Source: Chloroflexota bacterium (lineage in GTDB: Bacteria; Chloroflexota; Dehalococcoidia; Lucifugimonadales; UBA3495). Taken from it: a stretch of DNA of 64,000 nt. Under the pieces are notes generated by a model. That model was not told the DNA's origin, searched no databases, and was given only the letters and a program-made list of their open reading frames with translations. The position numbers and the translations under genes were made by a program. This document shows positions 12,316 through 63,065 of this stretch, one piece after another (the first letter of the stretch is position 1; the number at the start of each line of letters is the position of its first letter). The stretch is from assembly GCA_009840135.1 (NCBI GenBank), contig VXOH01000131.1, forward strand, positions 3,608-67,607, written 5' to 3'.

Positions 12316-12425
12316 TTGCAATCTTCCCGCCCCCACACGGCTGTCTCTGACAGCGCTCCCTGCGCGGGATATAATTGATTGAGGTGGGCTACAGCCGCTC
12401 TAGAGGGGGCTTTTGCGGAGACGGC

Positions 12426-14033: not shown

Positions 14034-14056
14034 TGGCAAGCGCTACACTTACCTTC

Positions 14057-14142
14057 GTTCCGGCGCAGGCGGGAACCTCGATGGCTACGAAAGGGCACCA
14101 TCAACCCAATCCTAACCTTCCCCCGTCAAGGGGAAAGGGACT
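14057..14142. repeat. family-D hairpin (14057-14076) plus family-B element (14111-14142)
   Basis: gttccggcgcaggcgggaac and cctaaccttcccccgtcaaggggaaagggact, in the gap between the CT and BC genes. Confidence 0.6.
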
Positions 14143-14187
14143 TGTTCAGCGGTTGCCCAAGGCAGCACTGGCACATCTCGTGAGGAC

Positions 14188-29221: not shown

Positions 29222-29229
29222 GAGACGCA

Positions 29230-30015
29230 GTGACGAATTTCTTCATCCAGTCCTACCTGACCTACCGCGCCCTGTTCTTCTGGCTTAACTGGCCGTCCTA
29301 CATCGGCAACGTGTTCCTGGTACCCGTCCTCTACATAACCATGCTGCTGCTGACGGGCAGGTTCGCCAACAGCCCGCTGGACTCGGAATTCTACGTCCTG
29401 GGCATGGCGGCCTATTCCACCCCTTTCATTCTTATCTGGGGCATAACCCAGTGCAATTACTACGAACGGGTTACGGGGACCCTGGCCCACGTTCTCGGCT
29501 CCTCGGGGAACCGGTGGCTGATTTTCTGGAGCAAAGGCACGATGCATTTTCCCAACGGCCTGTTCACCGTCACCAGCAGCCTGCTGTTCGCCTGGGCCTT
29601 CATAGGCCTGGACTTTACCAATCTCAACTGGGTTACCCTGGTGGTTTCCGTTCTGTTGTTCGCCCTTTCCTGCACCGCCTTTTCGCTGTGCATCGGAATC
29701 TTCGCTATCGTCATGCGGTCATGGCTTACATTGAGCGCCACGGCATCCGGACTGCTCATTCTTTTAACCGGCGTGGTCATACCGCTGGAGGATCTACCCT
29801 TTTTCCTGCACTACGTCGGCAATGTTCTGCCCCTGACCAACGGGGTGACCGCCTTCAGGGCGGCGTTCGACGGAGCGGGGCCCATGTCCGTTGGGGACCA
29901 CCTGATATGGGAACTGGGTGTGGGAATCTCCTACGGCGTTTTGGGTTACCTGTTCTTTCTGTTTGTAGAGGCGGATGCCCGGCGCCGGGGAGCCTACGAT
30001 ACGTCCATTCTGTAG
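29230..30015 (+). CDS. ABC-2 type transporter permease
   Basis: 261 aa, about 6 TM helices. GTG start with AGGAG 5 nt upstream. Confidence 0.75.
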   Translation: MTNFFIQSYLTYRALFFWLNWPSYIGNVFLVPVLYITMLLLTGRFANSPLDSEFYVLGMAAYSTPFILIWGITQCNYYERVTGTLAHVLGSSGNRWLIFWSKGTMHFPNGLFTVTSSLLFAWAFIGLDFTNLNWVTLVVSVLLFALSCTAFSLCIGIFAIVMRSWLTLSATASGLLILLTGVVIPLEDLPFFLHYVGNVLPLTNGVTAFRAAFDGAGPMSVGDHLIWELGVGISYGVLGYLFFLFVEADARRRGAYDTSIL

Positions 30016-31011
30016 ATGCTTGAAGTTTGGAGAGAGATAGTGGTTGCTGACAGCATTAATGCCGTAGAGTGCGTCAATCTGGGCCGGGTATATTCCTCCC
30101 GCAGCGCCCTGGGACGGAGACGGGATGTAGAAGCCCTGAAAGACCTCAACCTGGAAATTCCCAAAGGATCCGTCTTTGGCCTGCTGGGACCCAACGGCGC
30201 CGGCAAGACCACCACCGTGCGCATCCTGTCCACCCTCTTGACTCCCACCTCGGGCAGAGCGCGAGTCCTGGGCTATGATGTGGAAGCGCAGGCCAAGCAG
30301 GTGCGCAGGAATACCGGGTTTATCCTCGGGGGCGAGCGGGGGCTCTATGGCCGCATCACCGGCGAGCAGAATATGCATTTCTTCGCCGCTCTGAATCACA
30401 TCAACCCCCGAGACGCCAAGCGGCGCACCCGGCAACTGCTGGAACGCGTAGGACTGGCGGAAAACGCCGGGATGGCGGTGGAGAACTACTCCAGGGGCAT
30501 GAAACAACGGCTGCACATCGCGCGAGGTCTGCTGACCGACCCTCCCGTACTCTTCATGGACGAGCCCACCATCGGCATTGACCCCGTTGGCGCCCAGGAA
30601 CTGAGGAACTACGTTCCCGAACTGGCCAGCGAGGGCAAGACCATTCTGCTCACCACCCACTACATGGCCGAGGCCGACATGCTGTGCGACACCATTGCCA
30701 TTATTGACCGGGGAGAGCTGGCGGCGGTGGGTACTCCCGGAGAAATCAAGCGCCGCTTCAGCCGGATCGGAATAGTCGAACTTACCGTCAACCGGCCCCG
30801 GGAGGAACTGGCCGGGGAAATCCTGGACCTGGAAGCCGTGGAACGAGTGGAATCAATAGCGGAAGGACCCTTTCAAAAATTGACCGTTTCCCTCCGGTTC
30901 GGGGAAGACCTTACCGACAAAATTGTGGAAATTGTCGGCACAGACAACATCGAGAGCCTGGTGTCGCGGGACCCCACCCTGGAGGAGGCGTACATCAACA
31001 TAATTCGGTGA
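30016..31011 (+). CDS. ABC transporter ATP-binding protein (DrrA/ABC-2 exporter type)
   Basis: Has Walker A GPNGAGKTT, the signature YSRGMKQRL, and Walker B VLFMDEPT. An alternative GTG start at 30040 has a GGAGAG RBS. Confidence 0.9.
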   Translation: MLEVWREIVVADSINAVECVNLGRVYSSRSALGRRRDVEALKDLNLEIPKGSVFGLLGPNGAGKTTTVRILSTLLTPTSGRARVLGYDVEAQAKQVRRNTGFILGGERGLYGRITGEQNMHFFAALNHINPRDAKRRTRQLLERVGLAENAGMAVENYSRGMKQRLHIARGLLTDPPVLFMDEPTIGIDPVGAQELRNYVPELASEGKTILLTTHYMAEADMLCDTIAIIDRGELAAVGTPGEIKRRFSRIGIVELTVNRPREELAGEILDLEAVERVESIAEGPFQKLTVSLRFGEDLTDKIVEIVGTDNIESLVSRDPTLEEAYINIIR

Positions 31012-32138: not shown

Positions 32139-32767
32139 ATACCGACTTCATCCCCGGGCCAGCATCACCGGCCCGGGGATATCCCCGTTGACCCCCCGAT
32201 TCTTCTTGAGGGCGCATCTGCGTCGCCACGTCGAAGGTCATCTACCTGGCCACCTCCCTTTCCCTTGCCTGGCGTTACAGAGTCGCAGGGCGCCCGATTC
32301 CATTCAACGTTTCAACGCCCAGCCAAAACATGGCGGCAACGATGTGGAGTCGTCAGCGTTAGTGCAGACGGATTGTAAAGCCGCCATCCTCGCCTTACCA
32401 TAGAATGCACGGTTCATATTATTTGGGCCGCTTCCAGGCGGCTCACAAATAACCGCACTAGCGATGTAGCCTCGAGGGGCAAAGCTGGTTCTGGGTTCTA
32501 TTGCCATTCGGGCTACCTATTAAAACATCCCTTCCGGCGCATTGTTGTATTGATAGTTCTGGCAGGGGCGGGGACCGGCGAGGGTCGAGCCAGGTTCCGG
32601 AAGCAGCTGTTTCGGTTCTCCTGCCCCCTGACGGTCATATAACTTTGAACCAATTACTTGATTGCTAGACATATGCAGCTCTTCAACCCTCGTCCAGAGC
32701 AGGCTCCGGTTTGAATTGTTGCCGGCCTCATTCCCATCACAACGGAAGCAGGTACAGGAGAAAATAG

Positions 32768-35700
32768 ATGGCCACAAAGCCCAATTCGGTTTCCAGTCGC
32801 GGGGCGCAGAGCTTCCCGGGAGGCGGTGAGCCCATAGCAATTGTTGGAATGGCGTGCCGGTTCCCTGGCGCTCCGGACCTGGGCTCATTCTGGCGTTTGC
32901 TAGTAGAGGGGAAAAACTCCGTCACCGAAGCCGACCCCAATTCAGGCGTGGGTCGCATGGGTGAGCTTTTCGGTGACAGCCAGGTCAATAACCAGGCGTG
33001 CCGCTTCGGCGCCTTTGTGGATGACCTCGATCTGTTTGATGCTTCGTTCTTCCGCATTTCCCCCGTCGAGGCCGAACTCCTGGACCCGCAGCAGCGCATG
33101 ATGCTGGAGGTAAGCTGGCAGGCCCTTGAAGATGCAGGCATTGATCCCGCCCGGCTGCGGGGGAGCCGCACCGGGGTTTATACGGGAATAAGCAACGACG
33201 AATACCGGATGCTGGTGGTGGATTCCAGTAAACCCTCCGAGGCGGCTGCCTGCCTATATGCCCTGAGCGGCACCAATTTGAACGGGACCAGTGGGAGGGT
33301 ATCCTTCGTATTGGGCCTGATGGGGCCGGCAAAAGCGGTAGATGCCGCCTGTGCATCATCCCTGGTTTCCGTCCACGACGCCGTGGCAGACCTTCAGCAG
33401 GGCAAGGCGGACCTGGCCATCGCCGGCGGCGTCCAGGCGATTCTGAACGGCCGAATCTACGAACTCCGCGCCGACTCGATGATGCTGTCGCCCGATGGGC
33501 AATGCAAGGCCTTCGACGCTTCCGCCAACGGCTACGTGAGGGGCGAGGGCTGCGGCGTAGTCATCTTGAAGCGGCTCAGCGAGGCGGAGGCCGACGGCGA
33601 CCGCATCTGGGCCGTCATCCGGGGCGCGGCGGTAAATCACGGCGGGACGGGCGTGGGCCTGACCGTGCCCAACACGCCGGGCCTGGAACAGGTGATGGAA
33701 GCGGCTCTTGCCGACGCCGGCATTGAGCCCCTGGAGGTTGACTATATCGAAGCCCACGGGACCGGCACAACCGTTGGCGACCCGATCGAACTCAACGCCG
33801 TGAACGCCGTCTATGGACAGGGGAGGAACCCCAGCGAACCGCTGTTGGTGGCCTCGGTGAAGACCAACGTGGGACACCTGGAGTCCGCAGCGGGCATCGC
33901 CGGGCTGATGAAGGCAGCCCTGGTGGTAAACCAGGGCCTGATTCCCAGGCACCTGCACTTCCTAGACCCCAATCCCAGCCTGGACTGGGAAGGCCTGCCC
34001 TTGCTGGTGCCAACTGAAACGGTTGACTGGCCCGACGACCGCCAGCGACCGCGACTGGTCGGAGTCAACTCCTTCGGCATTTCCGGAACCAACTCCCACA
34101 TCCTGGTGGGGCAGCACATCTACGACGGGCAAGGGACTGACCACAAGATTTCAACCCTGGGACCCGCCAGCACGGTAAAAATCAAGCTGCCCGAAACCTT
34201 TTCCCAAGAGTCTCCGTCCAATGAGGAAGTCTTCCCGCGCCCAAAGCGAGTGCTGCCGCTGTCGGGCAAGTCGGGGGGCGCGTTGCAGGAGCTTGCCCAG
34301 CGCTACCTGGCGTGGCTCGATGATGATTCCCCGGACCAATTGAAGGACGGCCTGGCCCTTCTCGAAAAACTTTCGGACATGGCATGGACGGCGAGTATCG
34401 GCCGCAGCCACTTCGACTATCGTTCCGGCCTGGTTTACCAGGACGTTCCGGCGCTGCGGGAGGGACTCAAGGCGCTGGCCGAAACCGGTCAGACCGGCCA
34501 GACCGGCCAGCCGCCGCGGGCAGCCAGGGTGGCATTCCTCTACACCGGACAGGGAAGCCAGTGGGTCGGCATGGGACAGGCCCTCTACGAGACTGAACCG
34601 GTTGCCCGAGCCGTAATGGACGATTGCGACAGGATAGTGATGGAGGTGAGAGGCGTTTCCCTGCTGGACGTCATGTTCGGGCGGGACGAGACTGCCGGAG
34701 ACCTGGGCGACACGGCATGGGAACAGCCGGCCCTCTATGCGCTGGAGTGCGCCCTTACCGCCCTTTGGGAAAGCGTTGGAGTCCGGCCCGGCGCGGTTAT
34801 GGGACACAGCGTGGGCGAACTGGCCGCTGCCCAGGCGGCCGGCGTCTTCAGCCTGCGGGACGGCATGCGGTTTGCATTGGCCCGTGGCTCCCTGCTGTCG
34901 GCTACTGAGGCAGGGGCCATGGCCGCGGTCTTCGCCCCGAAATCCAGGGTGGCAGAGGCGGTCGAAAGGGTGAACGCCGCCTCCGGCAGCGTTGGACTCA
35001 GCGTGTCCGCCGACAACGGGCCCCAACAGGTGGTCAGCGGCCCGGCGGCGGACATCGAGGCCGTTTCCCGCCTGTTCGAGTCAGAGGGAATCCGGGCAAT
35101 CCGCCTGAACACTTCCTGGGGCTTCCACAGCGCCCTGCTGGACCCGGCCCTGGACGGTTTGGAAGCCGCCCTGGATGGGGTTCCCATACAGCACCCTTCA
35201 ATTCCCTTGGTCAGCAACCTGACGGGTCGCCAGGTGGAAGCTTCAATGGCCATGGACGGGGCCTACTGGCGGCAGCATGCCCGGCAACAGGTGGCCTTTG
35301 CCGGAGGAATCGGAACGCTGGCCGAAATGGGAATGGACCTGGTAATCGAGCTTGGCCCCCACTCGGTGCTGGGTCCCATGTCAATGCAGGCCTGGCCGGA
35401 GTCCGCCGGAGAACGGCGACTTGAGGGAGGCCCGATTGCCCTGGCAAGTCTGCGCCGGCCGCCCCGGGACGGCTCAACGCCGGAGCCGGAAAGCAGCTTC
35501 ATTGATGCGGTGGCGCAGGCCTACGAGGCCGGCCTGGACATTACTTTCGAAGGACTGTTCGCCGGCGAGGAACGCCGCCGGATTTCCCTGCCGGGTTATC
35601 CCTTCCAGCGCGAACGTTACTGGCTGCAGGGGGCCAGGAGGCGTCGGAGCGGCGGCGGGCATCCCCTGCTGGGAGAACGCCACGACTCAGCGCGGGGGGA

Positions 35701-38700
35701 GATTGCTTTCGAGACGGAGGTTTTTCCTTCCGACCCTGACTGGCTGAAGGACCACCGGGTCTTCGGCCACCTTGTAGCCCCGGGAGCCCTCTACGGGGCC
35801 ATGGCGGCAACTGCATCATTGCTCGAAGGCGACTGCCCGGTGGTATTGGACGACATCCAGCTGCATAGTCCGTTGGTCTTCACGGAACCGGACTCGGGAG
35901 AGGCCCCAGGCGCCGGAGGCCGAAAGCTACAGGCGTTCCTGGAAGATTCCGGGGAAGGATCGGAGCGCCTGGTTCAGATTTTCAGCCGCGGCCCCGAAAG
36001 CGGCTGGACGATGCACGTAGAGGGCCGCGTGGTTTCGAACGCCGCCTTGCAGGACGCGGAGGAGCGGGCAGACCTTGATGGCCTGAAGTCCCGCCTTGCC
36101 CCGGCAAACGTGCCCGCCTACTACCGGGCCAAGGCTGCCACCAGCATTGACCTGGGGCCGGCCTTCCGCACCCTGGGCAGGGTCTGGACCGGCCCTGGCG
36201 AGGCTCTCGGCGAGGTGTCCCTGCCGGAAGCCCTGGGCCTGAACGACCTGGAAATAAACCCGCTGGTTCTGGACGGCTGCTTCCAGGTGGTGGGGATGGC
36301 GCGCAACATGACCGGCTCACCGGACGAGCCCACCTACCTGCCCTTCGGCTGGGAGAGAATGTGGCTGACCGGAAAACTTCCGGACCGGGTGGTCTGCCAT
36401 GTGCTGATGAGTGAATCCGGCCGGGTATCAGACCCTGATGCTGACGATCATCCGGAGGCGCTGAGCGGGGAAATTCGCATCTATGACCTCGACGGAGCGC
36501 TCATCGGGGGGTTGAGCGGCTACACGGTAAAGCGGGCAACCCAGGCGGCCCTCCTTGCAGCAGTGGAAGGGGCAGAAGGTATAGACGACCTCCTTTACGA
36601 GGTAATCTGGCGCGACCGGCCCCTGGAATCGGCGTTGAAACCTGCAGGTTTCTTCCCCGCCCCGACAACTGTCGCAGCAGGAACCAGGCTGTTTCCCGAC
36701 TACCTCGTCGAGGCCGGGGTTGACCCCAAGGACAGGAACGCCCTGCTGGCCGACCTGGAAAGATGGTCCCACTCCTACGCTCTCCTCACCCTGGAAAAAC
36801 TGGGGTGGCAGCGAGCTCAAGGGGAGAAGGTAGTAGCAGAGGAACTCAGGCAACGCCTGAACGTTCTGCCAGTACACGAGCGCCTGTTCCGGCGGCTGCT
36901 GGAAATGCTGGCCCGCTCGGGCGTGGTTGAGGAGAATGACGGAGGATTTACCGTTCTGGTTGGAGACGGGGATACGTTGCCGGAATCCCTTCCCAGTGAT
37001 CCCGTGAACTTCGACCAGCAGATGCTAGCCAGGTATTCCCACGGCCTCACCGAAATCGGCCTCTTCCGCCGATCGGCCGCCGCCCTCGTTGATGTGCTGC
37101 GCGGGGAGCAGGATCCGCTGACCCTTTTGTTCAGCAGCGGCGAACCGACTGCCGCAGACCTTTACCTCAAAGCCCCGGTGGCCCGGGCCGCCAACGGGTT
37201 GCTGGCCGACACCGTACGGGCCCTGTTAGCCGACCTGCCCGACGACCGCCGGCTGCGGGTATTGGAGGTAGGGGCCGGCACCGGGTCGGCGACCGCCTCC
37301 GTGCTGCCGGAGCTACCCGCAGGCAGATTCGACTACGTCTATACCGATATTTCCGCCGGTTTCTTTGCCGAGGCGGAGGAGCGATTCGGCAACCAGGGTA
37401 TCGAATACCGCCCACTGGACATCGAAAAGGATCCTGTTTCCCAGGGCTTTAACTCCCACGGGTACGACCTGATCATCGCCTCCAACGTGCTGCACGCCAC
37501 TCAATACCTGTCGGAGACCCTGGGGCACTGCCGTGATTTGCTGGCCCCTTCAGGCCAACTCGTGGCCCTGGAAAACCTGCGCGGGCTGGGCTGGATGGAC
37601 CTGACCTTCGGCCAACTGGACGGCTGGTGGCGCTTCGCCGACTCATACCGCCCCCACCATGCCCTGGCTACTCCCGCAATTTGGCGTCAAGCTCTCACCG
37701 AATCGGGATTCGAGGACGCAACGGTATTGGGTGTGGACGATTCGTTCCCGTACGAATCACTGGATAAGGGAGTAATCGTGGCCCAGGGCCCCGCCCTGGT
37801 CAAGGAGGCCCAGGGCCTGTGGGTCATCCTGGGTGACCGGGAGGGCGAAGCTGGTGAGCTGGCGGCCGAACTGGCGGCCAGAAACCAGGCCATACTGCTG
37901 GCAGGCGTCAAAGAGGTAACCACCGGTGCTGAAGAGCCCTGCGTAACCGAAGAGTCCCGCATCCAGGGCGTTCAGGAGGTTGCCATAGACCCGGCCAGCC
38001 GCGAGGATTGGCAGTCAATTCTCAGAGAACTGCCCGGCGATGTGCCCTTCGGCGGTGTGGTACACCTTCAGAGCCTGGACGGTCATGGGAACCGGTCAAC
38101 GGCCAGGGAACTCGACGAGGACGTAAGCCATGCGGGGGAAAGCGCCCTGGTTCTGGTACAGGGTTTGCTTGACACGGATGTAACGCCGGAGAAGGGTGTT
38201 TGGTTTGTTACCCGGGGCGCCCAGGTATTGGAACGGGAGAATACCGGGGAACTGTCCGGTTCCGTACTGTGGGGATTGGGAAAGGCGATAGCCCTGGAGG
38301 CCCCCCATCTTCAGCCCCGCATGCTGGATTTGGACCCCTCCTCCCCAACAACGGCGTCCGACCTCGCCGGGGAACTGCTCTACCCCGATGAAGAGAATCA
38401 TCTTGCCTACCGGCTGGGTCGTCGACGGGCGGCTCGCCTGGTCCGGTTCGCCGCCGGAGCCGAGGAGTCCGGACGCCTGGCCCTGCCCGAAGAGACGGAG
38501 TGGGTGCTGGCCCCCGACCGGGGCGGCGTCTTCGATCAGCCCGAGGTCAAACTGCTCCCTTCCCAGCCCCTGGAACCCAGGGAGGTAAGGGTCGCGGTTG
38601 AGGCCGCAGGAATAAACTTCTGGGATGTCTTCAGGTCGCTGGGTTTCATCGAGGAAGGCGACCTGGGACGGGAATTTTGCGGTTACGTGATGGCCGTGGG

Positions 38701-41700
38701 CTCTGACGTTTCAAATGCATCCGTGGGCGATCACGTTGTTGGGTTGGGTTTTGGCGCCTTTGCCCCGGAAATGGTTACCCACGAGGAATTGGTGGCTCCC
38801 GCTCCGGAAGAAATCCCCGTTTCCGGGCTTGCCACCATTCCCAGCGCCTTCGTGTCCGCCGACCTGTCCTACCGGATGTCGGGGTTGAAGGCCGGCGATC
38901 GAGTGCTGATTCACGCCGGAGCCGGCGGCGTTGGCCTGGCCGCCATTCAACTGGCCCAGGCAGCGGGGGCAGAGGTATATGCCACTGCCAGCGCACCCAA
39001 GCAGGAATACCTCCGATCCCTGGGCGTAAAGCACATTTTCGACAGCCGCCAGACCCGGTTCGGGCAGGAAATCCTTGAGACCACCGGAGGCGAGGGTGTT
39101 GACGTAGTGCTGAACAGCCTCACCAGCGAAGGCTTCATTGACGCCAGCCTGTCCTGCCTGGCCCGGGGCGGCCGCTTCGTCGAGCTGGCCCGAAGGGATA
39201 TTCTCAGCCATGAAGAGATGGCGGCGGTACGCCCGGACGTGTCCTACTCTATCCTGGAGCTGGACGTGCTGAAGAAGACCGAGCCCGACAACGTGGGCGT
39301 CGTGCTGAGGGAAATAATGCGGCGGGTCGCCGGGGGCGAACTGGAACCCCTGATCCACAGCCGATGGCCGATGGCCCAGGCCGGGTCCGCATTGAGTTTC
39401 ATGCGCTCGGCCCGTCACATCGGAAAGATCGTGCTTACCAACCAGCCCCTGGTGCGAGGCAGCTTGCGGCAGGACCGCTCCTACCTGATAACCGGCGGAC
39501 TGGGCGGCATCGGCTGCGCTGTCGCCGGGTGGCTGGCCGACCACGGCGCCGGAACCATCGTGCTTAACGGCCGTCGCGACCCTGACCCCGAAGCTGTTAT
39601 GGCCATTGAGGAATTGCGACAAAAGGGCGCAAGAGTGGAGGTGGAACTCGCGGACGTAACGGACACCGCGGCCATAGACGCGATGCTGGCCCGTATAGAC
39701 ACTAACCTGCCGCCCCTGGCCGGGGTCATCCACAGCGTTGGAGTGTTGTCAGACGCCGCCCTGACCAACCAGACATGGGAGACCTTCCAGCAGGTCCTCA
39801 GGCCCAAGATTATGGGAGCCTGGCACCTGCACCGCGCCACCATGCAGCGCGACCTGGACCTGTTCGTCCTCTTCTCCAGCCGGGTGGGCGTAATGGGCAA
39901 TCCCGGCCAGGCGAACCATGCCGCGGCCAACGCCTTTTTGGACCAACTGGCCGGCCATCGCCGCGCCCTGGGCCTTCCCGGCCAGGCCATGGCCTGGGGA
40001 GCCTGGTCGGAAATCGGAGAAGCGGCTGAGCAGCGGGAGAGGATCGAAAGGCGCAGGTCTGCCCTTGGCGGCCGTTGGTTCACACCCCGCCAGGGCCTTC
40101 GCGCCCTCGAGAAACTGGTGTGCCAGGACACCACAACCTCCGTGGTGATGTCCATGGACTGGTCAGTATTCGAGGACGCAGTCGAATCCCGACCCTCTTT
40201 CCTGGAAGACCTGCTTACCTCGGGCGGCGGCCAGGAGACCACGGACGCGGGGACGTCGGAAGACCTCCTTTCCCAACTTCGTGGCGTTCCCTCTGCTGCC
40301 CCCCAGGACCTCCTTACCACCTTTCTCCAGCAGCAAGTCCAGGCCGTGCTGCGGCTATCATCGGCGCCCTCACCGACCGTTGGCTTCTTTGACCTGGGGA
40401 TGGACTCATTGATGGCGGTGGAGCTGCGAAATCGCCTTAACCGGGCCTTTGCCGGCCAGTACACCGCCTCCAACACCGTTGTATTTGACTACCCGGACAT
40501 CGCCAGCCTGTCGCGCCATTTGGCAGAGGAGCTTGGACAAGCCCAGGAAAGCGGCAATGCTCCGGAACTGGCGGAACCGGCGGCCCAGGAACCGGGGCAG
40601 GCGGCCACGACCGCAGATGACGGAATTGCGGTCGTGGGAATGGCCTGCCGATTCCCCGGGGCCGGTAACCTGGACGAGTTCTGGAAATTGCTGGAGGAAG
40701 GGCGCGAAGCAATCACCGACGGTCGCCAGGACGGCGGTTCCTGGACTGGCGCCGTGGGAGACCCCAATGCCGAGGACATCGCTCACCGGCGGGGCGGATT
40801 CCTGGACGGCATTGACCAGTTCGACTCCCGTTTCTTCCGAATCCAGCCCATCGAGGCTCGCATGATGGACCCCCGGCAGAGGGTGCTGCTGGAAACTACC
40901 TGGACCGCACTCGAAGATGCCGGCCTCGACCCGGACCAACTGCGGGGCAGCCGCACGGGAATCTACGCCGGACTTGGCGGCAGCGAATACCGAGACCTGA
41001 TCCAGTCCGGCGACCAGACCCATACCTACCTGGGAACCACCGGCAGTGTAACCGTGGGCCGTATCGCTTTCGCGCTGGGCCTGGAAGGGCCCGCCATGCC
41101 CGTGGACATGGCATGCGCCTCGTCCCTGGCTGCGGTGCATCAGGCGGTGGTTGCCCTGCAAAGGGGAGAGGTGGATATGGCTCTCGCCGGCGGGGCAAAC
41201 ATGGTACTGTCACCCGCAGTCTCCAGATTCATGATGGACGTGGGCATGCTGTCCCCCACCGGCCAATGCCGGCCCTTCGACGCCTCCGCCAATGGCTACG
41301 TGCGCGGTGAGGGCTGCGGGATAGTGGTGCTGAAACGCCTGAGCGACGCCGAGGCCGATGGCGACCGGATATGGGCAGTTGTTCGAGGGTCGGCGGTAAA
41401 CCAGAACGGAGCCAGCGCCGGCCTTACGGTGCCCAATGGCCAGGCGCAGGTGCGGGTAATGGAAGACGCCGTCACCCGGGCGGGAATATCGCCCTCCGAG
41501 GTGGACTACCTGGAGGCCCACGCGGTCGGCTCCCAGTTGGGTGACCCGATTGAATTAAACGCGGTGGCTTCGGTTTACGGCAAAGACCGGGAACAGGAAA
41601 AACCGCTGCTCATTGGCTCCATAAAGTCGAACATCGGGCACGTGGAGTGGGCCGCCGGGATTTCCGCCTTCATTAAGGCGGTCTTGTCCATCTCCAATGG

Positions 41701-43147
41701 CGTCATACCCGGAATTCCCAGCCTGGAGAAACTCAATCCCAACGTCGCCTGGGACCAGACCTCCCTTCGCGTAACCGCCAACAAGATGGACTGGCCGGCA
41801 GCTACCGGTCGGCAGCCGATGGCCGGTGTCAGCGCCTTTGGTCTCTCCGGCGCCAACGCGCACGTATTGGTGGAAGGGTACAGCGGCGCCGCATACAGTC
41901 CGGCAGTAACCGATGGCGCAGCTCTGCCGGCGGGACTGCCAAAACCGGTTTCCGCAAACCTGCCTGATCCATTAGGCGGGCTGCAAAACCTCGACAAGAA
42001 CTCGCCGGAGCGAACGGGCCGCCTGTTGCCGATTTCCGGTAAATCGCCCGGAGCCTTGCGGGAATTGGCGGAGCGATACCTGAACTGGCTGGATGCCAGG
42101 CACCTCTCTGCCGATAGCGAAGACCTAGCCGACCTGGCCTGGACTGCCAGCGCTGGCCGCGCTCACTTCCCGCACCGGGCAGGGCTGGTATTCAACAGCC
42201 AGGACCAGCTTCGTCAAGAGCTGATGTCGCTGTCCCAAGCCGAATCGGTCACCGGAGGGTCAACACCCCGTGAATCTGCAAGGGTGGCGTTTCTGTTTGC
42301 TGGTCAGGAAAGCCCCTGGGACGGCCTGGGCGCGGACCTGTGCCAGGAAGAACCCGTTGCGCGGGCGGTGCTTGACCAGTGCGGTGAACAATTCAGGGCC
42401 GCCCGCGGCGTCTCCCTGCTGGATGTGATGTTCGGGCGGTCCGTTATCGACCCTGGCGAAAATGGTCCTGAATGGGAACTGCCGGCCCGGTACGCGCTGC
42501 AATGCGCGTTAACCGCCCAGTGGGCAAGCCTGGGAATACGGCCCAGCGCAATAGTGGCCGATGGTTTCGGATGGCTTGCGGCAGCGCAGGCAGCCGGCGT
42601 GTGCGGCCTGGAAGACGGCCTGCGATTCGCGGCAGCCCTTGGGGACATAAAGAATCTTCAGCCAGGGCAAGACCTGGCATCGGCGCAAAGAGACCTGGAA
42701 GACGCCCTCGCCGCGCTGAATCCCGGATTGTCATCCGTACCCCTGGTGGATTGTTCCAGCGGGCTGCGGCAGGATACCGTCGGAATGGCTGAGATTACCC
42801 GCTGGCTTCAGCAGGGCCAGGAGTCCATTGACTACACCGGCTGCGCAAACTTTTTGGCCGACCTGGAGGTGAATGCGGTTATAGAGGTCGGGTCCACCTC
42901 GGCAACAGGGAAAAAGATTGGCAGTAACTGGCCGGACACCTCAGAGGCGCCCCTGGTAGTGGCTGACATGACCAATTCCACCGATGGCAGCGGATCCGGC
43001 GATTCCGATGGCGGTTTCCTGAGGGCCGCAGCCAGCCTTTATGAGGCCGGAGTGGATATTACCTTCGAAGGATTGTTTGCCGGGGAGACCCGGCGGAGAA
43101 TTTCTGTCCCGACCTATCCCTTCCAGCGAAGGAGGTATTGGTTTTAG
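32768..43147 (+). CDS. type I polyketide synthase, KS-AT-DH-cMT-ER-KR-ACP-KS-(degenerate AT)
   Basis: Approximate domain spans: KS1 32831-34110 (DAACASS, EAHGTGT, NVGHLE). AT1 34529-35623 (GQGSQ, GHSVG, GFHS). DH 35660-36545 (HRVFGHLVAP, DGCFQ). cMT about 36990-37700 (LEVGAGTGS). ER about 38470-39440 (HAGAGGVGLAA). KR 39481-40020 (ITGGLGGIG). ACP about 40300-40530 (GMDSL). KS2 40623-41878 (DMACASS, EAH, NIGHVE). AT-like 42284-43141 (ADGFG instead of GHSxG). Confidence 0.95.
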   Translation: MATKPNSVSSRGAQSFPGGGEPIAIVGMACRFPGAPDLGSFWRLLVEGKNSVTEADPNSGVGRMGELFGDSQVNNQACRFGAFVDDLDLFDASFFRISPVEAELLDPQQRMMLEVSWQALEDAGIDPARLRGSRTGVYTGISNDEYRMLVVDSSKPSEAAACLYALSGTNLNGTSGRVSFVLGLMGPAKAVDAACASSLVSVHDAVADLQQGKADLAIAGGVQAILNGRIYELRADSMMLSPDGQCKAFDASANGYVRGEGCGVVILKRLSEAEADGDRIWAVIRGAAVNHGGTGVGLTVPNTPGLEQVMEAALADAGIEPLEVDYIEAHGTGTTVGDPIELNAVNAVYGQGRNPSEPLLVASVKTNVGHLESAAGIAGLMKAALVVNQGLIPRHLHFLDPNPSLDWEGLPLLVPTETVDWPDDRQRPRLVGVNSFGISGTNSHILVGQHIYDGQGTDHKISTLGPASTVKIKLPETFSQESPSNEEVFPRPKRVLPLSGKSGGALQELAQRYLAWLDDDSPDQLKDGLALLEKLSDMAWTASIGRSHFDYRSGLVYQDVPALREGLKALAETGQTGQTGQPPRAARVAFLYTGQGSQWVGMGQALYETEPVARAVMDDCDRIVMEVRGVSLLDVMFGRDETAGDLGDTAWEQPALYALECALTALWESVGVRPGAVMGHSVGELAAAQAAGVFSLRDGMRFALARGSLLSATEAGAMAAVFAPKSRVAEAVERVNAASGSVGLSVSADNGPQQVVSGPAADIEAVSRLFESEGIRAIRLNTSWGFHSALLDPALDGLEAALDGVPIQHPSIPLVSNLTGRQVEASMAMDGAYWRQHARQQVAFAGGIGTLAEMGMDLVIELGPHSVLGPMSMQAWPESAGERRLEGGPIALASLRRPPRDGSTPEPESSFIDAVAQAYEAGLDITFEGLFAGEERRRISLPGYPFQRERYWLQGARRRRSGGGHPLLGERHDSARGEIAFETEVFPSDPDWLKDHRVFGHLVAPGALYGAMAATASLLEGDCPVVLDDIQLHSPLVFTEPDSGEAPGAGGRKLQAFLEDSGEGSERLVQIFSRGPESGWTMHVEGRVVSNAALQDAEERADLDGLKSRLAPANVPAYYRAKAATSIDLGPAFRTLGRVWTGPGEALGEVSLPEALGLNDLEINPLVLDGCFQVVGMARNMTGSPDEPTYLPFGWERMWLTGKLPDRVVCHVLMSESGRVSDPDADDHPEALSGEIRIYDLDGALIGGLSGYTVKRATQAALLAAVEGAEGIDDLLYEVIWRDRPLESALKPAGFFPAPTTVAAGTRLFPDYLVEAGVDPKDRNALLADLERWSHSYALLTLEKLGWQRAQGEKVVAEELRQRLNVLPVHERLFRRLLEMLARSGVVEENDGGFTVLVGDGDTLPESLPSDPVNFDQQMLARYSHGLTEIGLFRRSAAALVDVLRGEQDPLTLLFSSGEPTAADLYLKAPVARAANGLLADTVRALLADLPDDRRLRVLEVGAGTGSATASVLPELPAGRFDYVYTDISAGFFAEAEERFGNQGIEYRPLDIEKDPVSQGFNSHGYDLIIASNVLHATQYLSETLGHCRDLLAPSGQLVALENLRGLGWMDLTFGQLDGWWRFADSYRPHHALATPAIWRQALTESGFEDATVLGVDDSFPYESLDKGVIVAQGPALVKEAQGLWVILGDREGEAGELAAELAARNQAILLAGVKEVTTGAEEPCVTEESRIQGVQEVAIDPASREDWQSILRELPGDVPFGGVVHLQSLDGHGNRSTARELDEDVSHAGESALVLVQGLLDTDVTPEKGVWFVTRGAQVLERENTGELSGSVLWGLGKAIALEAPHLQPRMLDLDPSSPTTASDLAGELLYPDEENHLAYRLGRRRAARLVRFAAGAEESGRLALPEETEWVLAPDRGGVFDQPEVKLLPSQPLEPREVRVAVEAAGINFWDVFRSLGFIEEGDLGREFCGYVMAVGSDVSNASVGDHVVGLGFGAFAPEMVTHEELVAPAPEEIPVSGLATIPSAFVSADLSYRMSGLKAGDRVLIHAGAGGVGLAAIQLAQAAGAEVYATASAPKQEYLRSLGVKHIFDSRQTRFGQEILETTGGEGVDVVLNSLTSEGFIDASLSCLARGGRFVELARRDILSHEEMAAVRPDVSYSILELDVLKKTEPDNVGVVLREIMRRVAGGELEPLIHSRWPMAQAGSALSFMRSARHIGKIVLTNQPLVRGSLRQDRSYLITGGLGGIGCAVAGWLADHGAGTIVLNGRRDPDPEAVMAIEELRQKGARVEVELADVTDTAAIDAMLARIDTNLPPLAGVIHSVGVLSDAALTNQTWETFQQVLRPKIMGAWHLHRATMQRDLDLFVLFSSRVGVMGNPGQANHAAANAFLDQLAGHRRALGLPGQAMAWGAWSEIGEAAEQRERIERRRSALGGRWFTPRQGLRALEKLVCQDTTTSVVMSMDWSVFEDAVESRPSFLEDLLTSGGGQETTDAGTSEDLLSQLRGVPSAAPQDLLTTFLQQQVQAVLRLSSAPSPTVGFFDLGMDSLMAVELRNRLNRAFAGQYTASNTVVFDYPDIASLSRHLAEELGQAQESGNAPELAEPAAQEPGQAATTADDGIAVVGMACRFPGAGNLDEFWKLLEEGREAITDGRQDGGSWTGAVGDPNAEDIAHRRGGFLDGIDQFDSRFFRIQPIEARMMDPRQRVLLETTWTALEDAGLDPDQLRGSRTGIYAGLGGSEYRDLIQSGDQTHTYLGTTGSVTVGRIAFALGLEGPAMPVDMACASSLAAVHQAVVALQRGEVDMALAGGANMVLSPAVSRFMMDVGMLSPTGQCRPFDASANGYVRGEGCGIVVLKRLSDAEADGDRIWAVVRGSAVNQNGASAGLTVPNGQAQVRVMEDAVTRAGISPSEVDYLEAHAVGSQLGDPIELNAVASVYGKDREQEKPLLIGSIKSNIGHVEWAAGISAFIKAVLSISNGVIPGIPSLEKLNPNVAWDQTSLRVTANKMDWPAATGRQPMAGVSAFGLSGANAHVLVEGYSGAAYSPAVTDGAALPAGLPKPVSANLPDPLGGLQNLDKNSPERTGRLLPISGKSPGALRELAERYLNWLDARHLSADSEDLADLAWTASAGRAHFPHRAGLVFNSQDQLRQELMSLSQAESVTGGSTPRESARVAFLFAGQESPWDGLGADLCQEEPVARAVLDQCGEQFRAARGVSLLDVMFGRSVIDPGENGPEWELPARYALQCALTAQWASLGIRPSAIVADGFGWLAAAQAAGVCGLEDGLRFAAALGDIKNLQPGQDLASAQRDLEDALAALNPGLSSVPLVDCSSGLRQDTVGMAEITRWLQQGQESIDYTGCANFLADLEVNAVIEVGSTSATGKKIGSNWPDTSEAPLVVADMTNSTDGSGSGDSDGGFLRAAASLYEAGVDITFEGLFAGETRRRISVPTYPFQRRRYWF

Positions 43148-43735
43148 CGCCAAATTCACGGGACAGGGGTGAGGGAGACTTGGGAGATCCTGGGACGATG
43201 CCCCTGCCCTTCCCCGAGAGTCCATACGGTGAAAATCCCTGGACGCGGGGGATGGGCTTGCTGTTGGTGACCGCCCGTTTCCGTGGGGCAGGTTCTGCCA
43301 AACCACAGCCCGGATCGCAACGCTCATAAAGCCAACCGGGATGGGGTCAGAGAAGAGGCCCACGCGATCAGTGCCAGGCGAGGAAAGAAGCGGTCCAGCA
43401 GAAGTTGAGCCCATATCCGACCATAACTCGGTCCTTTTCAATCTACACAGCGACAGGAACAACATTAGTTCGATACCCCTGCTTTCAAAGCAAGCGTTAT
43501 GGGAAAGGGTGAGTCGAAACCTGGCCTGGCGGCGGCGCCGTCAGAAGTTCGGACCGCCCCGAACTTACAAAAGCATACTCTTTCCTGTTGAATGAAAGTA
43601 GTCCTTATTAATGGTTGACGCAGGTAAGCATTAAGTATTGGTTTAAGTCAACACTTAATGCAAAAGCCGGAATTGATTCTGGCGAAAAGTTATCACTATT
43701 AGTCGGCTCCTGGGCCGCTCGCCAACCGTCTCACT

Positions 43736-45097
43736 TTACGCACTCTGCAATTGGGTTGGAAATTGACCAGGGAGGTCCGCTGTCCTTTTTGCCAATCGGT
43801 CAGAGCGGCCGCGGCCGACACCTGCGTAGTCAAACCCCAGTTCCGCCATAACCTCAGGCTCCAGCGCGTTTCTCCCGTCGAAAACATACCTGGGCGTCCG
43901 CATTATCCCGGCTATGCCGGCCCAGTCGGCGCCGACAATTTCGTCCCATTCCGTCAAGAGCGCCAGGGCCTGGGCTCCGGTGGCAGCCGACTCAGGGCTG
44001 CCAGAAAAGGCCACGCAGGCGGGCAGCTTCTTCCTTGCAGCGTGGTTGGCCTGGGGGTCAAAAGCCGCGACGTCCGCTCCTTCCTGCACCAGGGCTTCTA
44101 TCAGGTCTACAGCGGGGGCTTCGCGAATGTCGCTGGTGCCAGGCTTGAAGGCCAGCCCCAGCACGCCAACACGGACACCGGCCAGTCCCCCGGGAAAGCG
44201 GGAGCGCAACCGGGCCAGCGGCAGCATTCGCTGGCGGGCGTTCACGGATGCCACGGAACCAAGCAGGTCCATCTGGACTCCTTTGGCATGGGCCAAATAC
44301 TGAAGGGCCAAAATGTCCTTTGGGAAGCAGGACCCGCCGTATCCTATGCCGGGGTGGATTTGCTGGCCCGTCCTTGCATCCATGGCCAGCCCCAGGCTGA
44401 CCGCGTCTATGGACGCCCCAACCTCCTCACACAGTGCAGCCATCTCGTTGATAAAAGAAATTCGTGCGGCCAGGAAAGCGTTGCTGGCGTATTTGAGCAT
44501 TTCAGCGCTGGTGACGTCTGTGACCAGGTAGGGGGCTTCTATCGTGGCGTACATTTTCTTGACCACCGCGACGGCCCATTGGGAACACCGGTCAGCGCCC
44601 ACCACGATCCGGTCCGGGTGCATCCAGTCCTGTAATGCCCGCCCTTCCCTCAGGAATTCGGGATTGCTTACATAAGCCACATCCAGCCCTCTTAGCTCCC
44701 GTTGGGCAAAGGCGCTTCCGGAACCTGGCGGCACCGTACTCTTCATTACGATGGCGGTGTTTCCTGGCTGCAGGCTTCTGATCCAATGTAAGGCGGAAAG
44801 GACCTGGCTCAAGTCGGCCTCTCCCCCTTCACTGGCGGGAGTGCCCGTAGCCACCAGCGCCACTTCTCCCAGATTGCCGGAGAACTCTTCAGTGTCAAGG
44901 AAACACAGATTGCCCCTGCCCAGGCCTTCCTCCAGCCATGCCTCCAGACCGGGTTCGTGAAGAGCAGGCTTCCCCTGCTTCAGCCCTTCAATCCTGAACC
45001 TGTCAACATCTACTCCGGTGACGTGATGCCCCGCCCTGGCGAGGGCGCTGGCCGCCACCACCCCCAGGTGTCCCATACCAACGACCGTAATTCGCAA
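43736..45097 (-). CDS. UDP-glucose/GDP-mannose dehydrogenase family protein (UDP-glucose 6-dehydrogenase-like)
   Basis: Reads RITVVGMGHLGVVAASALARAGHHVTGVD, catalytic GGSCFPKD. TTG start with GGGGAGG upstream. Confidence 0.9.
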   Translation of the reverse strand: MRITVVGMGHLGVVAASALARAGHHVTGVDVDRFRIEGLKQGKPALHEPGLEAWLEEGLGRGNLCFLDTEEFSGNLGEVALVATGTPASEGGEADLSQVLSALHWIRSLQPGNTAIVMKSTVPPGSGSAFAQRELRGLDVAYVSNPEFLREGRALQDWMHPDRIVVGADRCSQWAVAVVKKMYATIEAPYLVTDVTSAEMLKYASNAFLAARISFINEMAALCEEVGASIDAVSLGLAMDARTGQQIHPGIGYGGSCFPKDILALQYLAHAKGVQMDLLGSVASVNARQRMLPLARLRSRFPGGLAGVRVGVLGLAFKPGTSDIREAPAVDLIEALVQEGADVAAFDPQANHAARKKLPACVAFSGSPESAATGAQALALLTEWDEIVGADWAGIAGIMRTPRYVFDGRNALEPEVMAELGFDYAGVGRGRSDRLAKRTADLPGQFPTQLQSA

Positions 45098-45224
45098 TTG
45101 ACAAGTCCTCCCCGGTGTTCGCGAGACTGATGGCTAAAGGAGGCACAATACCACCTTAGTTCTGTTTCCACCAATATACATTGAATGTACACAAGTCATA
45201 ATTGATGTCGTGTAACATGGGATA

Positions 45225-45253
45225 TTGACTTATAGAAATCTTACTGTTATAAG
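45225..45253 (+). promoter_or_regulatory. candidate sigma70-type promoter for the 45314-54034 gene string
   Basis: TTGACT, 17 nt, TATAAG inside a strongly AT-rich divergent intergenic region; 60 nt before the ATG at 45314. Confidence 0.45.
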
Positions 45254-45313
45254 TATACACGTTTTACAAAAATAATCTACACTGTTGCATACTTATAGGC
45301 AATACGTAAATAT

Positions 45314-48300
45314 ATGAACACTGGCAACACAACCGTAAATGCAGCCTCAATAGACGAAGCGCAATCTGTTTCTGCTCTGGGGGCGACTGGGCGCCCACCA
45401 ATCTCGATATTCAGGGTCCTGGTATCTGTGGCGGCGCTGGTGGTGGCCCTGGTTACCGTGGGCCTCCTCGCCGATTGGCCGCTGCTGGCCGAGGCTCTGA
45501 GGGAACTGGGGAAGCAGCCGTATCTTGTGCCTGTCCTGGTCATTGTGTACTCCTCCGCTTTCCTGCTGAGGGCCATAGCCTGGAAGGCGCTAATGGTCTC
45601 CGGCGGGAACACGTTCAAGCTGCTGGGGGCGTTGCAGGCAGCGTTGCTGGTCAATCACCTGGCGCCCCTGAAACTGGGCGAGTTTGTTCGCCCCCTGGCA
45701 GCAGCCAGGGCAGGCGTCCCACTGGCCGAGGCGGCAACCACCACGGCGGTGGCGCGGGTCCTGGACTTTGTGGCTTTGCTGGTAATTGCGGCCAGCGTAG
45801 GGTCTTTTGTTTCTTTGTCCGCCGGCGAGGGGCGCTGGCTCCAGGGACTGGCCCTGCCGGCGGTGGTGATTGCCGGAATCTGTGGACTGCTGCTGGTCCT
45901 GCGGTGGCGCCGGCTGCATGATTGGCTTCCGGAACTGCTGCGTACTCGCTTCGACATTATGCAGTCCCAGCTGAGGCAGGTGTCGGGACGGCGACTGGCT
46001 ACGGCCGCCGCCTGGACTTTACCCAGCTGGATTCTGGAAGCCGTGGTCATTATCGTGGCGGCCAGAGCCCTCGGGATCGAACTTTCCCTGGCTGCGGCAA
46101 TTTCGGTAACTGCCTTCACGATCCTGTTCCAGGCCTTCCATATCACTCCCGGCGGCATCGGCGTTTACGAAGCGGTTATGACGGGCGCCCTGTTTGCCCA
46201 CGGCATACCCTGGGAGGAAGGGCTCGCCCTGGCCGTGGCTACCCACGGTCTAAAGTTCGCCTACTCCTACACCATTGCCCTGGCCTTCTCCTTCACCGCC
46301 CTGGTCGGCCTCAGGCGGATGCCGTCGCTGAACCCGCTGAATCATCTGCGAGGTTCGTCAGACGGCGCCAAGTCGGCCTCCAGCTTCGAGGTTGTCGCGG
46401 CGCGCCTTTGGAACGTCCTCAATGAGGGCAAACCCTTTACACCGGTATTCACCCTGGGCATCATCGCCCTGCTGAGTGTCCCGCACCTGGGCGACGGCGG
46501 CTATTGGCTCCGCGCGGCAGGCGCGCTCCTTGCCCTGGTTCCCCTTTTCGTCGTGTTCTACCGCTTCGACTTCCCCCTGCGGCTTCGGGTGACCCTGTGG
46601 ATATACGTGGGCGTTTTCCTGGCCGTTTTCCGGTTCGCCGACCTGACGGCCATGGCCCTTATCCTGGGCATCTACCTGACTTTCACCATATTCCTGTGGG
46701 GCACGGTGTACTACCACCTGCGTATCGGCACTTCCTGGCTTAACTTTACCCGATTCTGGCGCCTGGTCCTGGAGAATCCGGACCCCACCAGCGGCAACTT
46801 CCTGGAGCAGATTCCCAAGCTGACGCTGCTGGTCCTCGCCTTCCAGATACTGGTTGCCCGACCCACGCCGGTGACGTATTTGGCGGTGGAAGGCTTTGTG
46901 CTGCTGTTGGCCATTACCGCGCTCCTGCTGCACCAGTGGTTCTTCACCTGGCCGCCCGCGCCATCCATGGTGCCTACGACCAAGCGCGCCATTAACGGCG
47001 AACGCATTTCCCGCCGCTTCATCACCATCGTCATCGACGGTTGCCGGGCCGACCGCCTGCTGGAGGCCAACACTCCGTACATAGACCGGCTGCGCAGTGA
47101 GGGCGTCGACTACATAGATACTTCGACAGTTTACCCGGCCCGCACGGTATCCGGTTTCAGCTCAATGTTCACGGGGGCGCCCCCGACCGTTCACGGCATG
47201 ACCAGCAACTTCGTGCCCAGCCTGGGCGTGAAGTGCGAGTCCATATTTGATGCTCTGCGGAAGGAAGGCTTGAACGGCAAGCTGGTGGGCATAGCTCACC
47301 TCATTGATGCCTTCGGCCACAACGACGTTGAAACGGTGACGGCGGTTACCAACAACGACGATATAGACAACGCGCTGACCGCCCGCGCCCAGGCGGTAAT
47401 ACAGCGGGACGACCCGGACCTGCTGATTCTGCAATTGTTAAGCGTTGACCAGACCGGCCACGCCCGGGGCAGCTACAACTCTGAGTACCTGGAAAAGATC
47501 GAGGAATCGGACCGGATAATCCAGCGTTTTCTGGAGTGGTGCGACTCCATCGGCTATCTGGACGAAGCCACAGTTGTGATTACCGCCGACCACGGCCAGG
47601 GCATCGGCATTGGCGGACACGGGCACATGAGCCCCACCGAACGGTACGTGCCGTGCATTCTGTGGGGCCACGGCGTGGAAACCCGGGGAGTTATCGCTGA
47701 GCCCCATTCGGTGATGGACGTTACCGCCACCATCGCCTACTTCCTGGGTGTTGCCCCTCCCGAACAGTCGGTGGGGCAGGTGCTGGGCATTGCCGAGAGC
47801 GAAGCGGATGTTGCTTCGCGTCCGGTCGCCGTAATCATTCCCGCCTACAACGAAACGGAGAACCTGCCTGACACGCTGGCGCGAATACCCCGCCGCCAAT
47901 TTCCCAACCTGAAGGTCATCGTCGTGGACGACGGTTCAACCGATGGTACGGCCCGGCTGGCCCGGGACCACGGCGCCGACGTGGTGATATCCCACACCCT
48001 TAACCGGGGTCTGGGCGCGGCCCTCCGAACGGGCCTGGCGGCTGCCAACGAACTGAATGCCAGGGCCGCGGTTTACGTGGATGCCGATGGCGAATATCCA
48101 CCGGAACAGATTCCCGACCTGCTGGAGCCCATATTGCAGGGTGAAGCCGACTACGTTCTCGGTTCACGCTACCTGGGCAAGAGACAGGGCCAGAGAGCGG
48201 TCCGCCTGCTGGGCAACCTGGTCTTTACCGGCTTGCTGTGCCTGGCGACGGGCCGGCGAATTACCGACGGACAGACAGGCTTCCGCGCCTTCTCGCGGCG

Positions 48301-48496: not shown

Positions 48497-48535
48497 AACA
48501 CCATCCGCCTCTGGCGGACCAGGAGGAGTGCTATC

Positions 48536-59158: not shown

Positions 59159-59165
59159 CGCCTTT

Positions 59166-61680: not shown

Positions 61681-61690
61681 AGCGAGGTTT

Positions 61691-62857: not shown

Positions 62858-63065
62858 GTTCAACTCCTTTACCTCGTTTAACCTGAATCTACATACCCAG
62901 GCACGCAAAACCTGGATTTTCATACACCGCTATAACGATGCCAGTAAATACCATGGCCAGCTCGGATACAGTCCAAAGACCTCTCCGCTTCAAATCCTGG
63001 ACGCATCAATTCGGTTAACATCACATAGCACAGTTGGCATATCAATTTCTATTGTGAATGTAAAA

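Follow-up and report, generated by a model that had tools for sequence, protein, structure and literature searches.

How a polyketide synthase (PKS) that stops at a condensing domain could extend and release its chain is the question raised by a gene of a Chloroflexota bacterium of the class Dehalococcoidia (assembly GCA_009840135.1). The gene lies at 32768..43147 on the plus strand of a 64,000-nucleotide stretch of contig VXOH01000131.1, which was analyzed as a whole and is called the window hereafter. It encodes a type I PKS of 3459 residues with the domain order KS1-AT1-DH-cMT-ER-KR-ACP-KS2-AT0, that is, a ketosynthase (KS), an acyltransferase (AT), a dehydratase (DH), a C-methyltransferase (cMT), an enoylreductase (ER), a ketoreductase (KR) and an acyl carrier protein (ACP), followed by a second KS and a dead AT scaffold (AT0). 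An earlier note, made from the DNA letters, had pointed out that such an ending does not fit textbook module logic. We find that the architecture is real, conserved and indeed non-textbook, and that the window PKS is intact and belongs to a large family of PKSs of unsolved function, which resemble fatty acid synthases (FAS) and apparently occur mainly in sponge-microbiome genomes.

Domain organization and the end of the gene

Pfam and NCBIfam searches of the protein, together with direct motif reading, defined the domains and agree with the single open reading frame (ORF) and the layout described in the earlier note, whose positions for the catalytic residues of KS1, AT1, ACP and KS2 proved exact. 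An AGGAG lies about 7 nt ahead of the ATG start codon of the ORF, an in-frame stop closes the frame directly upstream, and all 3459 codons are read without interruption; an exact-sequence look-up of the PKS retrieved no record. KS1 (32828..34111, residues 21-448, Pfam 21-398) contains Cys195 (nt 33350-33352) and the motifs EAHGTG and NVGH. AT1 (34523..35407, residues 586-880, Pfam 590-872) displays GQGSQ, GHSVG with Ser681 (34808-34810), the Arg of ALARGS, and WGFHS. By motif reading it is the sole catalytically complete AT of the protein, and its GFHS, a motif of the xFHS type, predicts an active domain of malonyl type, as had been suggested. The DH (35648..36577, residues 961-1270, Pfam 965-1262) has HxxxGxxxxP at residues 996-1005, the cMT (37193..37717, residues 1476-1650 by Pfam) has LEVGAGTGS as motif I, the ER (38558..39442, residues 1931-2225, Pfam 1937-2223) has GAGGVG, and the KR (39473..40027, residues 2236-2420, Pfam 2238-2415) has GGLGGIG. 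The single ACP (40313..40537, residues 2516-2590, Pfam PP-binding 2520-2585) carries GMDSL, with Ser2547 at 40406-40408.

Behind the ACP, a variable linker of the inter-module kind (40538..40618, residues 2591-2617) leads to KS2 (40619..41887, residues 2618-3040), which has Cys2783 (41114-41116) in DMACASS, in addition to EAHAVG and NIGH. A second KS-AT linker domain (41888..42277, residues 3041-3170), in which Pfam recognizes CurL-like_PKS_C and a RhiE-like linker at residues 3086-3156, connects KS2 to AT0 (42278..42967, residues 3171-3400), a dead and shortened AT scaffold with a weak Pfam AT stretch. The post-AT linker (42968..43147) ends in YPFQRRRYWF and the stop codon, all these features lying on the plus strand. 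A non-coding gap of 588 bp (43148..43735; about 590 bp in the earlier note) separates the stop from a convergent UDP-glucose dehydrogenase gene.

Neither Pfam nor NCBIfam detected a thioesterase (TE), reductase or condensation domain in the PKS protein, and a second ACP is lacking. The sole ACP-type motif in the six frames of the 64 kb is that of the PKS ORF, and Pfam found no PKS, ACP, phosphopantetheinyl transferase (PPTase) or TE domain in the 34 other large ORFs of the window. An overlooked ACP or TE is ruled out by these searches, which bear out the earlier statement that the protein stops right after the post-AT linker with no second carrier or off-loading domain, and that no further PKS or ACP gene is present in the window.

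The unusual ending is shared by the relatives of the gene. A scan of one genome per species yielded 34 related loci, 27 of which hold a complete gene; stop-to-stop reading gives proteins of 3393-3486 residues in all 27, with the stop at the same position. The post-AT motif YPFQRRRxW lies at most 16 residues from the C-terminus in 106 of 120 homologues of the ACP-KS2-AT0 segment found in databases; the other 14 are either distant modular PKSs or end before this point. A HMMER search with AT0 and the tail retrieved 1702 representatives at E <= 1e-30, whose whole-tail matches (query ~6-419) place the unit within ~25 residues of the C-terminus, with four internal exceptions. The comparison of C-termini by which the earlier note proposed to detect a truncation therefore gave no run-on into an ACP or TE. 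As the family members end in the same KS2-AT0, the odd ending represents a conserved design and not a broken gene. It is a family-wide trait of hundreds of public sequences, less singular than had been implied.

The assembly was also verified independently. A Logan contig from run SRR9841444 matches window 39895-49097 (9203 bp) at 100% identity, without gaps, and spans the PKS stop codon and the whole intergenic gap, so that two assemblies agree across this region. Moreover, blastx detected no remnant of a PKS domain at 43148-43735, and the gap is not conserved in relatives. Altogether, the common last residue of the 27 complete orthologous genes, the identity of the second assembly over 9.2 kb, the lack of a remnant and the fully open frame speak against the loss of an ACP-TE end near 43150, be it by truncation to a pseudogene or by an assembly artefact. 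Such a loss might be suspected from the 588 bp of non-coding DNA after the stop, from the disrupted copies at some related loci and from the frameshifts in 15% of supA amplicons (PMC4245539), which belong to the Sup-type PKSs discussed below. We consider it extremely improbable and, as far as sequence data allow, already refuted.

Among the 34 related loci, two hold disrupted copies: in L032 (about 7150-7210) the frame shifts between query residues 1687 and 1705, and in L001 the PKS copy has an internal stop (upstream of 3707), echoing the ~15% of frameshifted supA amplicons (PMC4245539). The Logan contig ends at window 39895, inside the KR domain of the PKS gene, possibly because the assembly broke where the community has many paralogous sup-like genes.

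The second ketosynthase and its acyltransferase scaffold

Compared to AT1, AT0 has GQESP for GQGSQ, ADGFG for GHSxG and Leu for the carboxylate-binding Arg, thus replacing the catalytic Ser by Gly, His by Asp and Arg by Leu; in addition, the ~88 residues of AT1 that form the small subdomain with GFHS are reduced to ~15. All 120 homologues have Gly at the nucleophile position and lack the small subdomain. The Cys of KS2 is invariant in the same 120 sequences, His2 (NIGH) is near-invariant, and His1 is found in most of them, so the full Cys-His-His set and the dead second AT had been recognized correctly. A canonical cis-AT extension module possesses an active AT and its own downstream ACP, neither of which KS2-AT0 has. 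A non-elongating KS (KS0) has lost the first catalytic His and kept the Cys, whereas KS2 keeps both EAH and NIGH, as do most homologues. Neo-functionalization of AT0 was rejected, as its invariant residues are only scattered and common to AT1, with no sign of a new active site.

The mean pairwise identity among the 27 full-length orthologues is 74% for KS1, 66% for AT1, 60% for DH, 79% for cMT, 74% for ER, 80% for KR, 77% for ACP and 73% for KS2, compared to 45% for the second KS-AT linker, 41% for AT0 and 58% for the post-AT linker. By these values (73% versus 41%), KS2 shows the conservation of a functional enzyme and AT0 that of a linker, and KS2 is under the same purifying selection as KS1 (73% versus 74%). 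The ACP-KS2 linker has a mean identity of 28% with 35% gaps and is disordered in the structure model. The KS1 and KS2 sequences form two reciprocally monophyletic groups; identity is 73-74% within either group and 56% across them, which places KS2 in the protein before the family spread across phyla and makes the two separate ancient clades. The AlphaFold model predicts a canonical KS-AT didomain fold for KS2-AT0, and its best PDB matches are the ordinary KS-AT didomains of CurL, Lsd14, DEBS and Pks13.

KS-AT didomains dimerize in known PKSs, and KS2-AT0 might accordingly be a catalytically irrelevant relic of a lost second module, kept for dimerization or stabilization. The clear decay of AT0 would suit such a relic, and the multi-module relatives described below could be the source of a truncation. 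However, a Cys present in 120/120 homologues, with both His in most, is unexpected for a purely structural KS, and an identity of KS2 equal to that of KS1 across at least five bacterial lineages also disagrees with it. We regard a relic as highly improbable.

A further deviation concerns the KR domain. His2384 (window 39917-39919) occupies the position of the catalytic Tyr (GQANHAAAN), replacing the Tyr of N-Y-A-A-A-N found in AmphB, MAS and other PKS KRs. The His is present in 27/27 orthologues and in all 68 further homologues matched by a regular expression for the motif. The NADPH motif is intact, as is the Ser, and the KR is the best conserved domain. It may use His as the general acid or perform an altered chemistry.

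Domain models built from the orthologues were applied, with Pfam confirmation, to the best 150 of the 1702 representatives. Ten of these combine the KS-AT0 end with different reducing loops (DH-MT-ER-KR, DH-MT-KR, DH-KR or KR alone, MT being a methyltransferase), and 15 have further domains after the KS-AT0 unit. For instance, P0361 reads KS-AT-MT-KR-ACP-KS-at0-DH-KR-ACP-KS-at0-DH-KR-ACP and P0387 reads KS-AT-ACP-KS-at0-ACP-KS-at0-DH, where at0 is the dead AT. KS-AT0 heads complete modules with their own ACP in P0361, P0387, P0391 and P0397, and runs on into a DH in P0372 and P0502. In the representatives whose N-terminal module is on record (P0361, P0372, P0375 and P0387), a catalytic AT occurs in module 1 only, and in P0397 the AT0 module lies downstream of modules with active ATs. 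The downstream KSs of P0361, P0372, P0375, P0387, P0391, P0395, P0397 and P0502 are paired with dead ATs, which either have Ser changed to Gly at full length or have the small subdomain deleted, within modules that otherwise look complete. Of the 32 KS domains with an AT0 behind them, 24 showed the full Cys-His-His triad in a motif check. An active AT confined to module 1, with dead ATs downstream, points to one cis-AT that serves several modules, and the AT0-paired KSs of this lineage appear to be elongating KSs served by the AT of another module. For such elongating KSs, the multi-module relatives provide the strongest comparative evidence here.

We tentatively propose, at a likelihood just short of even, that KS2 acts as a second elongating KS, using AT1 and the single ACP in common with KS1. 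The PKS is predicted to make a reduced, fatty-acid-like chain methylated from S-adenosylmethionine (SAM). By analogy with modular PKSs, KS2, which sits right after the ACP, would take the growing acyl chain from the ACP onto Cys2783; it is expected to receive the chain in this way because the short, variable linker after the ACP is like that of a downstream-module KS. As both His are kept in its Cys-His-His triad, KS2 would be expected to condense with a malonyl-carrier, here malonyl re-loaded by AT1 onto the same ACP, of either its own chain or the partner chain in the dimer. The β-keto product would be processed by the shared KR, DH, ER and sometimes cMT. The enzyme would thus be an iterative synthase of two KSs, one AT and one ACP, with different rounds taken by KS1 and KS2, perhaps divided by chain length or by an α-methylated intermediate, a point on which we speculate. 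AT0 would be a mere structural scaffold needed by the KS-AT didomain, and the chain would be released by an enzyme encoded away from this PKS copy. The own ACP is favored as the carrier because neither a stand-alone ACP or AT nor a partner PKS gene accompanies the PKS in the window or at the 34 related loci, and because relatives have one AT for several AT0 modules.

Several points weigh against this proposal. A second condensing KS seems redundant where there is a single ACP, and the internal AT0 modules of relatives come with ACPs of their own, which provides no proof that an ACP-less KS2 uses ACP1. The exit of the chain is left unexplained, as there is no TE and the α/β-hydrolase that recurs at related loci is absent from the window. 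Moreover, His1 of KS2 is Gln or Asn in a few of the 120 homologues, just two invariant columns discriminate KS1 from KS2, with no difference in specificity seen, and the model of ACP-KS2-AT0 is of moderate confidence, with a predicted local distance difference test score (pLDDT) of 70.

Taken further, the proposal would amount to an undescribed iterative-PKS logic, which we consider possible though doubtful. Two condensing KSs would time-share one ACP and one AT; at a fixed stage of synthesis KS1 would pass the chain to KS2, and this transfer would set the site of the one methyl branch and the stop of elongation. In the wider lineage, the several AT0 modules of a multi-module enzyme would have their ACPs loaded by one cis-AT.

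The main rival to a shared ACP is that KS2 condenses the methyl-branched chain of ACP1 with malonyl on a carrier encoded elsewhere, either a free-standing ACP, for instance the housekeeping AcpP of FAS II loaded by FabD, or an unlinked partner protein, so that the PKS would prime ordinary fatty-acid elongation. This would yield a single mid-chain methyl branch without need of a TE or a second ACP, in agreement with a KS2 that has a complete triad yet no AT or ACP of its own and with a protein that has no release domain. The terminal KS-AT0 could then be the first half of a split module, given the relatives that possess the rest of the module, and published proposals have linked Sup PKSs to mid-chain methyl-branched fatty acids (PMC4245539). 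Nevertheless, no ACP or partner gene is linked at the window or the 34 related loci, though a PPTase, a hydrolase and a permease recur at the latter. In addition, we are not aware of any megasynthase KS that uses AcpP. Such a transfer to a foreign carrier seems unlikely to us.

Genes around the synthase and its leader

The neighbors of the PKS in the window include two α/β-hydrolases, a myo-inositol-1-phosphate synthase (26206-27756), ABC-2 transporter genes (28442-31011) and the UDP-glucose dehydrogenase, surroundings that suggest an envelope-lipid or glycolipid locus. None of these neighbors is common to any related locus, and there is no conserved synteny; hence we draw no functional link from them. 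Further downstream, window 45314-51127 encodes a 1060-residue ORF with Pfam LPG-synthase TM, sulfatase/phosphodiesterase and family 2 glycosyltransferase (GT2) matches, then an 863-residue ORF without a Pfam match; this stretch adds to the envelope or glycolipid character of the locus and is likewise not conserved in relatives.

At the related loci, the recurrent PKS neighbors are an Abhydrolase_6 protein (21 loci), an Sfp-type PPTase (15 loci) and a permease of ~570-600 residues from the Xan_ur_permease family (11 loci). None of the three has a homologue in the 64-kb window (tblastn, 1e-3), and they are missing too from the flanks of the closest relatives L001 and L003.

The recurrent hydrolase bears on a further possibility, in which KS2 is a non-elongating gatekeeper or off-loading station that accepts the finished chain only and thereby ends the iteration by KS1; the acyl-Cys would then be hydrolyzed or moved to an acceptor lipid by a trans-acting enzyme. 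The lack of a TE, the hydrolase adjoining the PKS at 21 related loci, the few members that have lost His1 but not Cys, and the envelope or glycolipid type of the window neighbors are all in keeping with this role. However, both His, required for decarboxylation but dispensable for transacylation, are kept in most members, whereas the non-elongating KS0 of trans-AT PKSs typically lacks His1. Furthermore, the family hydrolase is absent from the window, and the hydrolases are generic esterase-like proteins unlike thioesterases. We judge a gatekeeping KS2 quite unlikely. A thioesterase role was rejected for both the family hydrolase and the upstream hydrolase of the window, since a PDB sequence search found them generic esterase-like; the two are unrelated to each other.

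About 17 kb upstream of the PKS, a gene set for a biotin-dependent acyl-CoA carboxylase (12375-16238) comprises a carboxyltransferase (12375-14033), a biotin carboxylase (14188-15702) and a biotin carboxyl carrier protein (BCCP, 15528-16238), and is a possible source of malonyl-CoA for the PKS. On the minus strand at 57710-62923, a cluster of four genes encodes an HTTM / vitamin-K-dependent gamma-carboxylase-like protein, an imelysin, a di-haem oxidoreductase and a second imelysin; this cluster appears unrelated to the PKS.

The PKS gene is preceded on the plus strand by a conserved non-coding leader (32312..32767) that includes the ribosome-binding site (CAGGAGAA..AGATG). It is ~66% identical over ~456 nt to the regions upstream of the PKS in L001 and L003, where the flanking genes differ, and its invariant blocks include GATTGTAAA..CG.CA.CCTCGCCTTACCAT. 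Codon periodicity and a shared ORF are lacking in the leader, Rfam gave no match, the predicted fold is not significant (z-score of the minimum free energy, -0.64), and a strict pattern search gave no further copies. A known RNA or a small ORF was rejected, as there is no Rfam match, no periodicity and no stable fold. The leader may be a promoter or a long 5' untranslated region that travels with the gene.

Relation to Sup-type and other synthases

The window PKS is 85-86% identical over its full length to the proteins of L001, L003, L010 and L030. The relatives come from metagenome-assembled genomes (MAGs) of Dehalococcoidia/Chloroflexota, Acidimicrobiia (Ca. Spongiisocius), Paracoccaceae, Binatia, Gemmatimonadota, Nitrospira and others. 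The closest of them belong to at least five bacterial lineages, and several of their names point to sponge samples; the RHO and COS bin names we take to be sponge-derived. The SB06xx_bin series, also among the relatives, is counted as sponge-associated bacteria (PMC7883664).

The closest published group is the Sup-type PKSs. Sup, for sponge symbiont ubiquitous, is a type I PKS, SupA, reportedly introduced by Fieseler et al. in 2007, and its exact published domain string is said to be KS-AT-DH-MT-ER-KR-ACP. Sup PKSs are small, mono-modular, highly diverse and specific to sponges of high microbial abundance; their genes are very abundant in sponge microbiomes and spread over many phyla, and they have been proposed to make methyl-branched fatty acids, with no product demonstrated (PMC3908369, PMC4245539, PMC9864124). 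Sup-type genes dominate KS surveys of sponge microbiomes (PMC4245539, PMC10308959), and a 2023 survey described a sponge-specific KS clade in Gemmatimonadetes and Alphaproteobacteria that is absent from MIBiG 2.0 (PMC10308959). No report of a product or mechanism of the Sup family was found in the literature, and the literature search gave no relevant paper on a domain string ending in ACP-KS-AT. In the Sup literature found, which does not cover the original description of 2007, a terminal KS-AT0 is not mentioned.

Similar to Sup, the first module of the window PKS is a single, fully reducing module with a methyltransferase and a malonyl-type AT, and related loci other than the window have a SupE-like permease of ~570-600 residues, a PPTase and a hydrolase. 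The window differs in having none of these accessory sup genes (permease SupE, PPTase, hydrolase). The likeness to Sup raised in the earlier note fits the first-module architecture, the MAG relatives, several of them with names that point to sponge samples, and the accessory genes of related loci, but does not extend to the window itself as regards accessory genes. Searches for homologues of the PKS, the permease and the KS1 amplicon region gave no named SupA, SupE or amplicon sequence among the matches listed. Judged from the published descriptions, the window PKS very likely belongs to the Sup type.

Mycocerosic acid synthase (MAS), like the MAS-like iterative PKSs of mycobacteria, shares with the window PKS an iterative, FAS-like KS-AT-DH-ER-KR-ACP core, methyl-branched lipids and the lack of an integrated TE; for the KS and KR domains, MAS provides one of the nearest solved structures. 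However, MAS has one KS and no cMT and takes its methyl from methylmalonyl-CoA, whereas the window PKS has two KSs, a malonyl-type AT1 and a SAM-derived methyl; these features, and a score of 1460 for the NCBIfam Pks2 equivalog, below the cut-off of 2400, place the protein outside the MAS-like group. The earlier comparison to MAS thus holds for the architecture but not for the methyl source.

Like the window PKS, trans-AT PKSs have KSs followed by a non-functional AT-like scaffold that rely on an AT elsewhere, and their proteins may end in a KS with the partner domains on another polypeptide; the best PDB sequence match of KS2 is the KS of a trans-AT bimodule (7zma). They differ in that the window PKS has no free-standing trans-AT gene, the loading AT being the cis AT of module 1, that KS2 keeps His1 unlike a typical KS0, and that no downstream partner is linked at 35 loci.

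In the synthases of polyunsaturated fatty acids (PUFA; PfaA/PfaC), several KSs share carrier domains and different KSs act in different rounds. The window PKS resembles them as an iterative fatty-acid-like megasynthase in which, as proposed here, more than one KS would act on chains of the same ACPs. By contrast, PUFA synthases have tandem ACPs, a pair of KS and chain-length factor (CLF), a FabA-type DH and several subunits, compared to the single ACP of the window PKS, which scores 594.9 bits against the PfaA model TIGR02813, below the cut-off of 1010.1 for a PUFA synthase. The mycobacterial Pks12 carries two complete iterative modules in one protein and makes a methyl-branched lipid by repeated alternation; it also has two KS domains per polypeptide, but each Pks12 module has an active AT and an ACP, and the second unit of the window PKS has neither.

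The Sup-type family has been known since 2007, and the window PKS very probably adds one copy to it; its value lies in a testable hypothesis of two KSs and one ACP, and in the comparative evidence for one AT shared by AT0-paired KS units. The conservation of KS2, the decay of AT0 and the relatives with modules headed by KS-AT0 together make a definite hypothesis on the biochemistry out of what looked like an odd annotation. Should two KSs indeed be served by a single AT and a single ACP, this would be a new way of programming iterative synthases and would help to explain the abundant mid-chain methyl-branched lipids of sponges.

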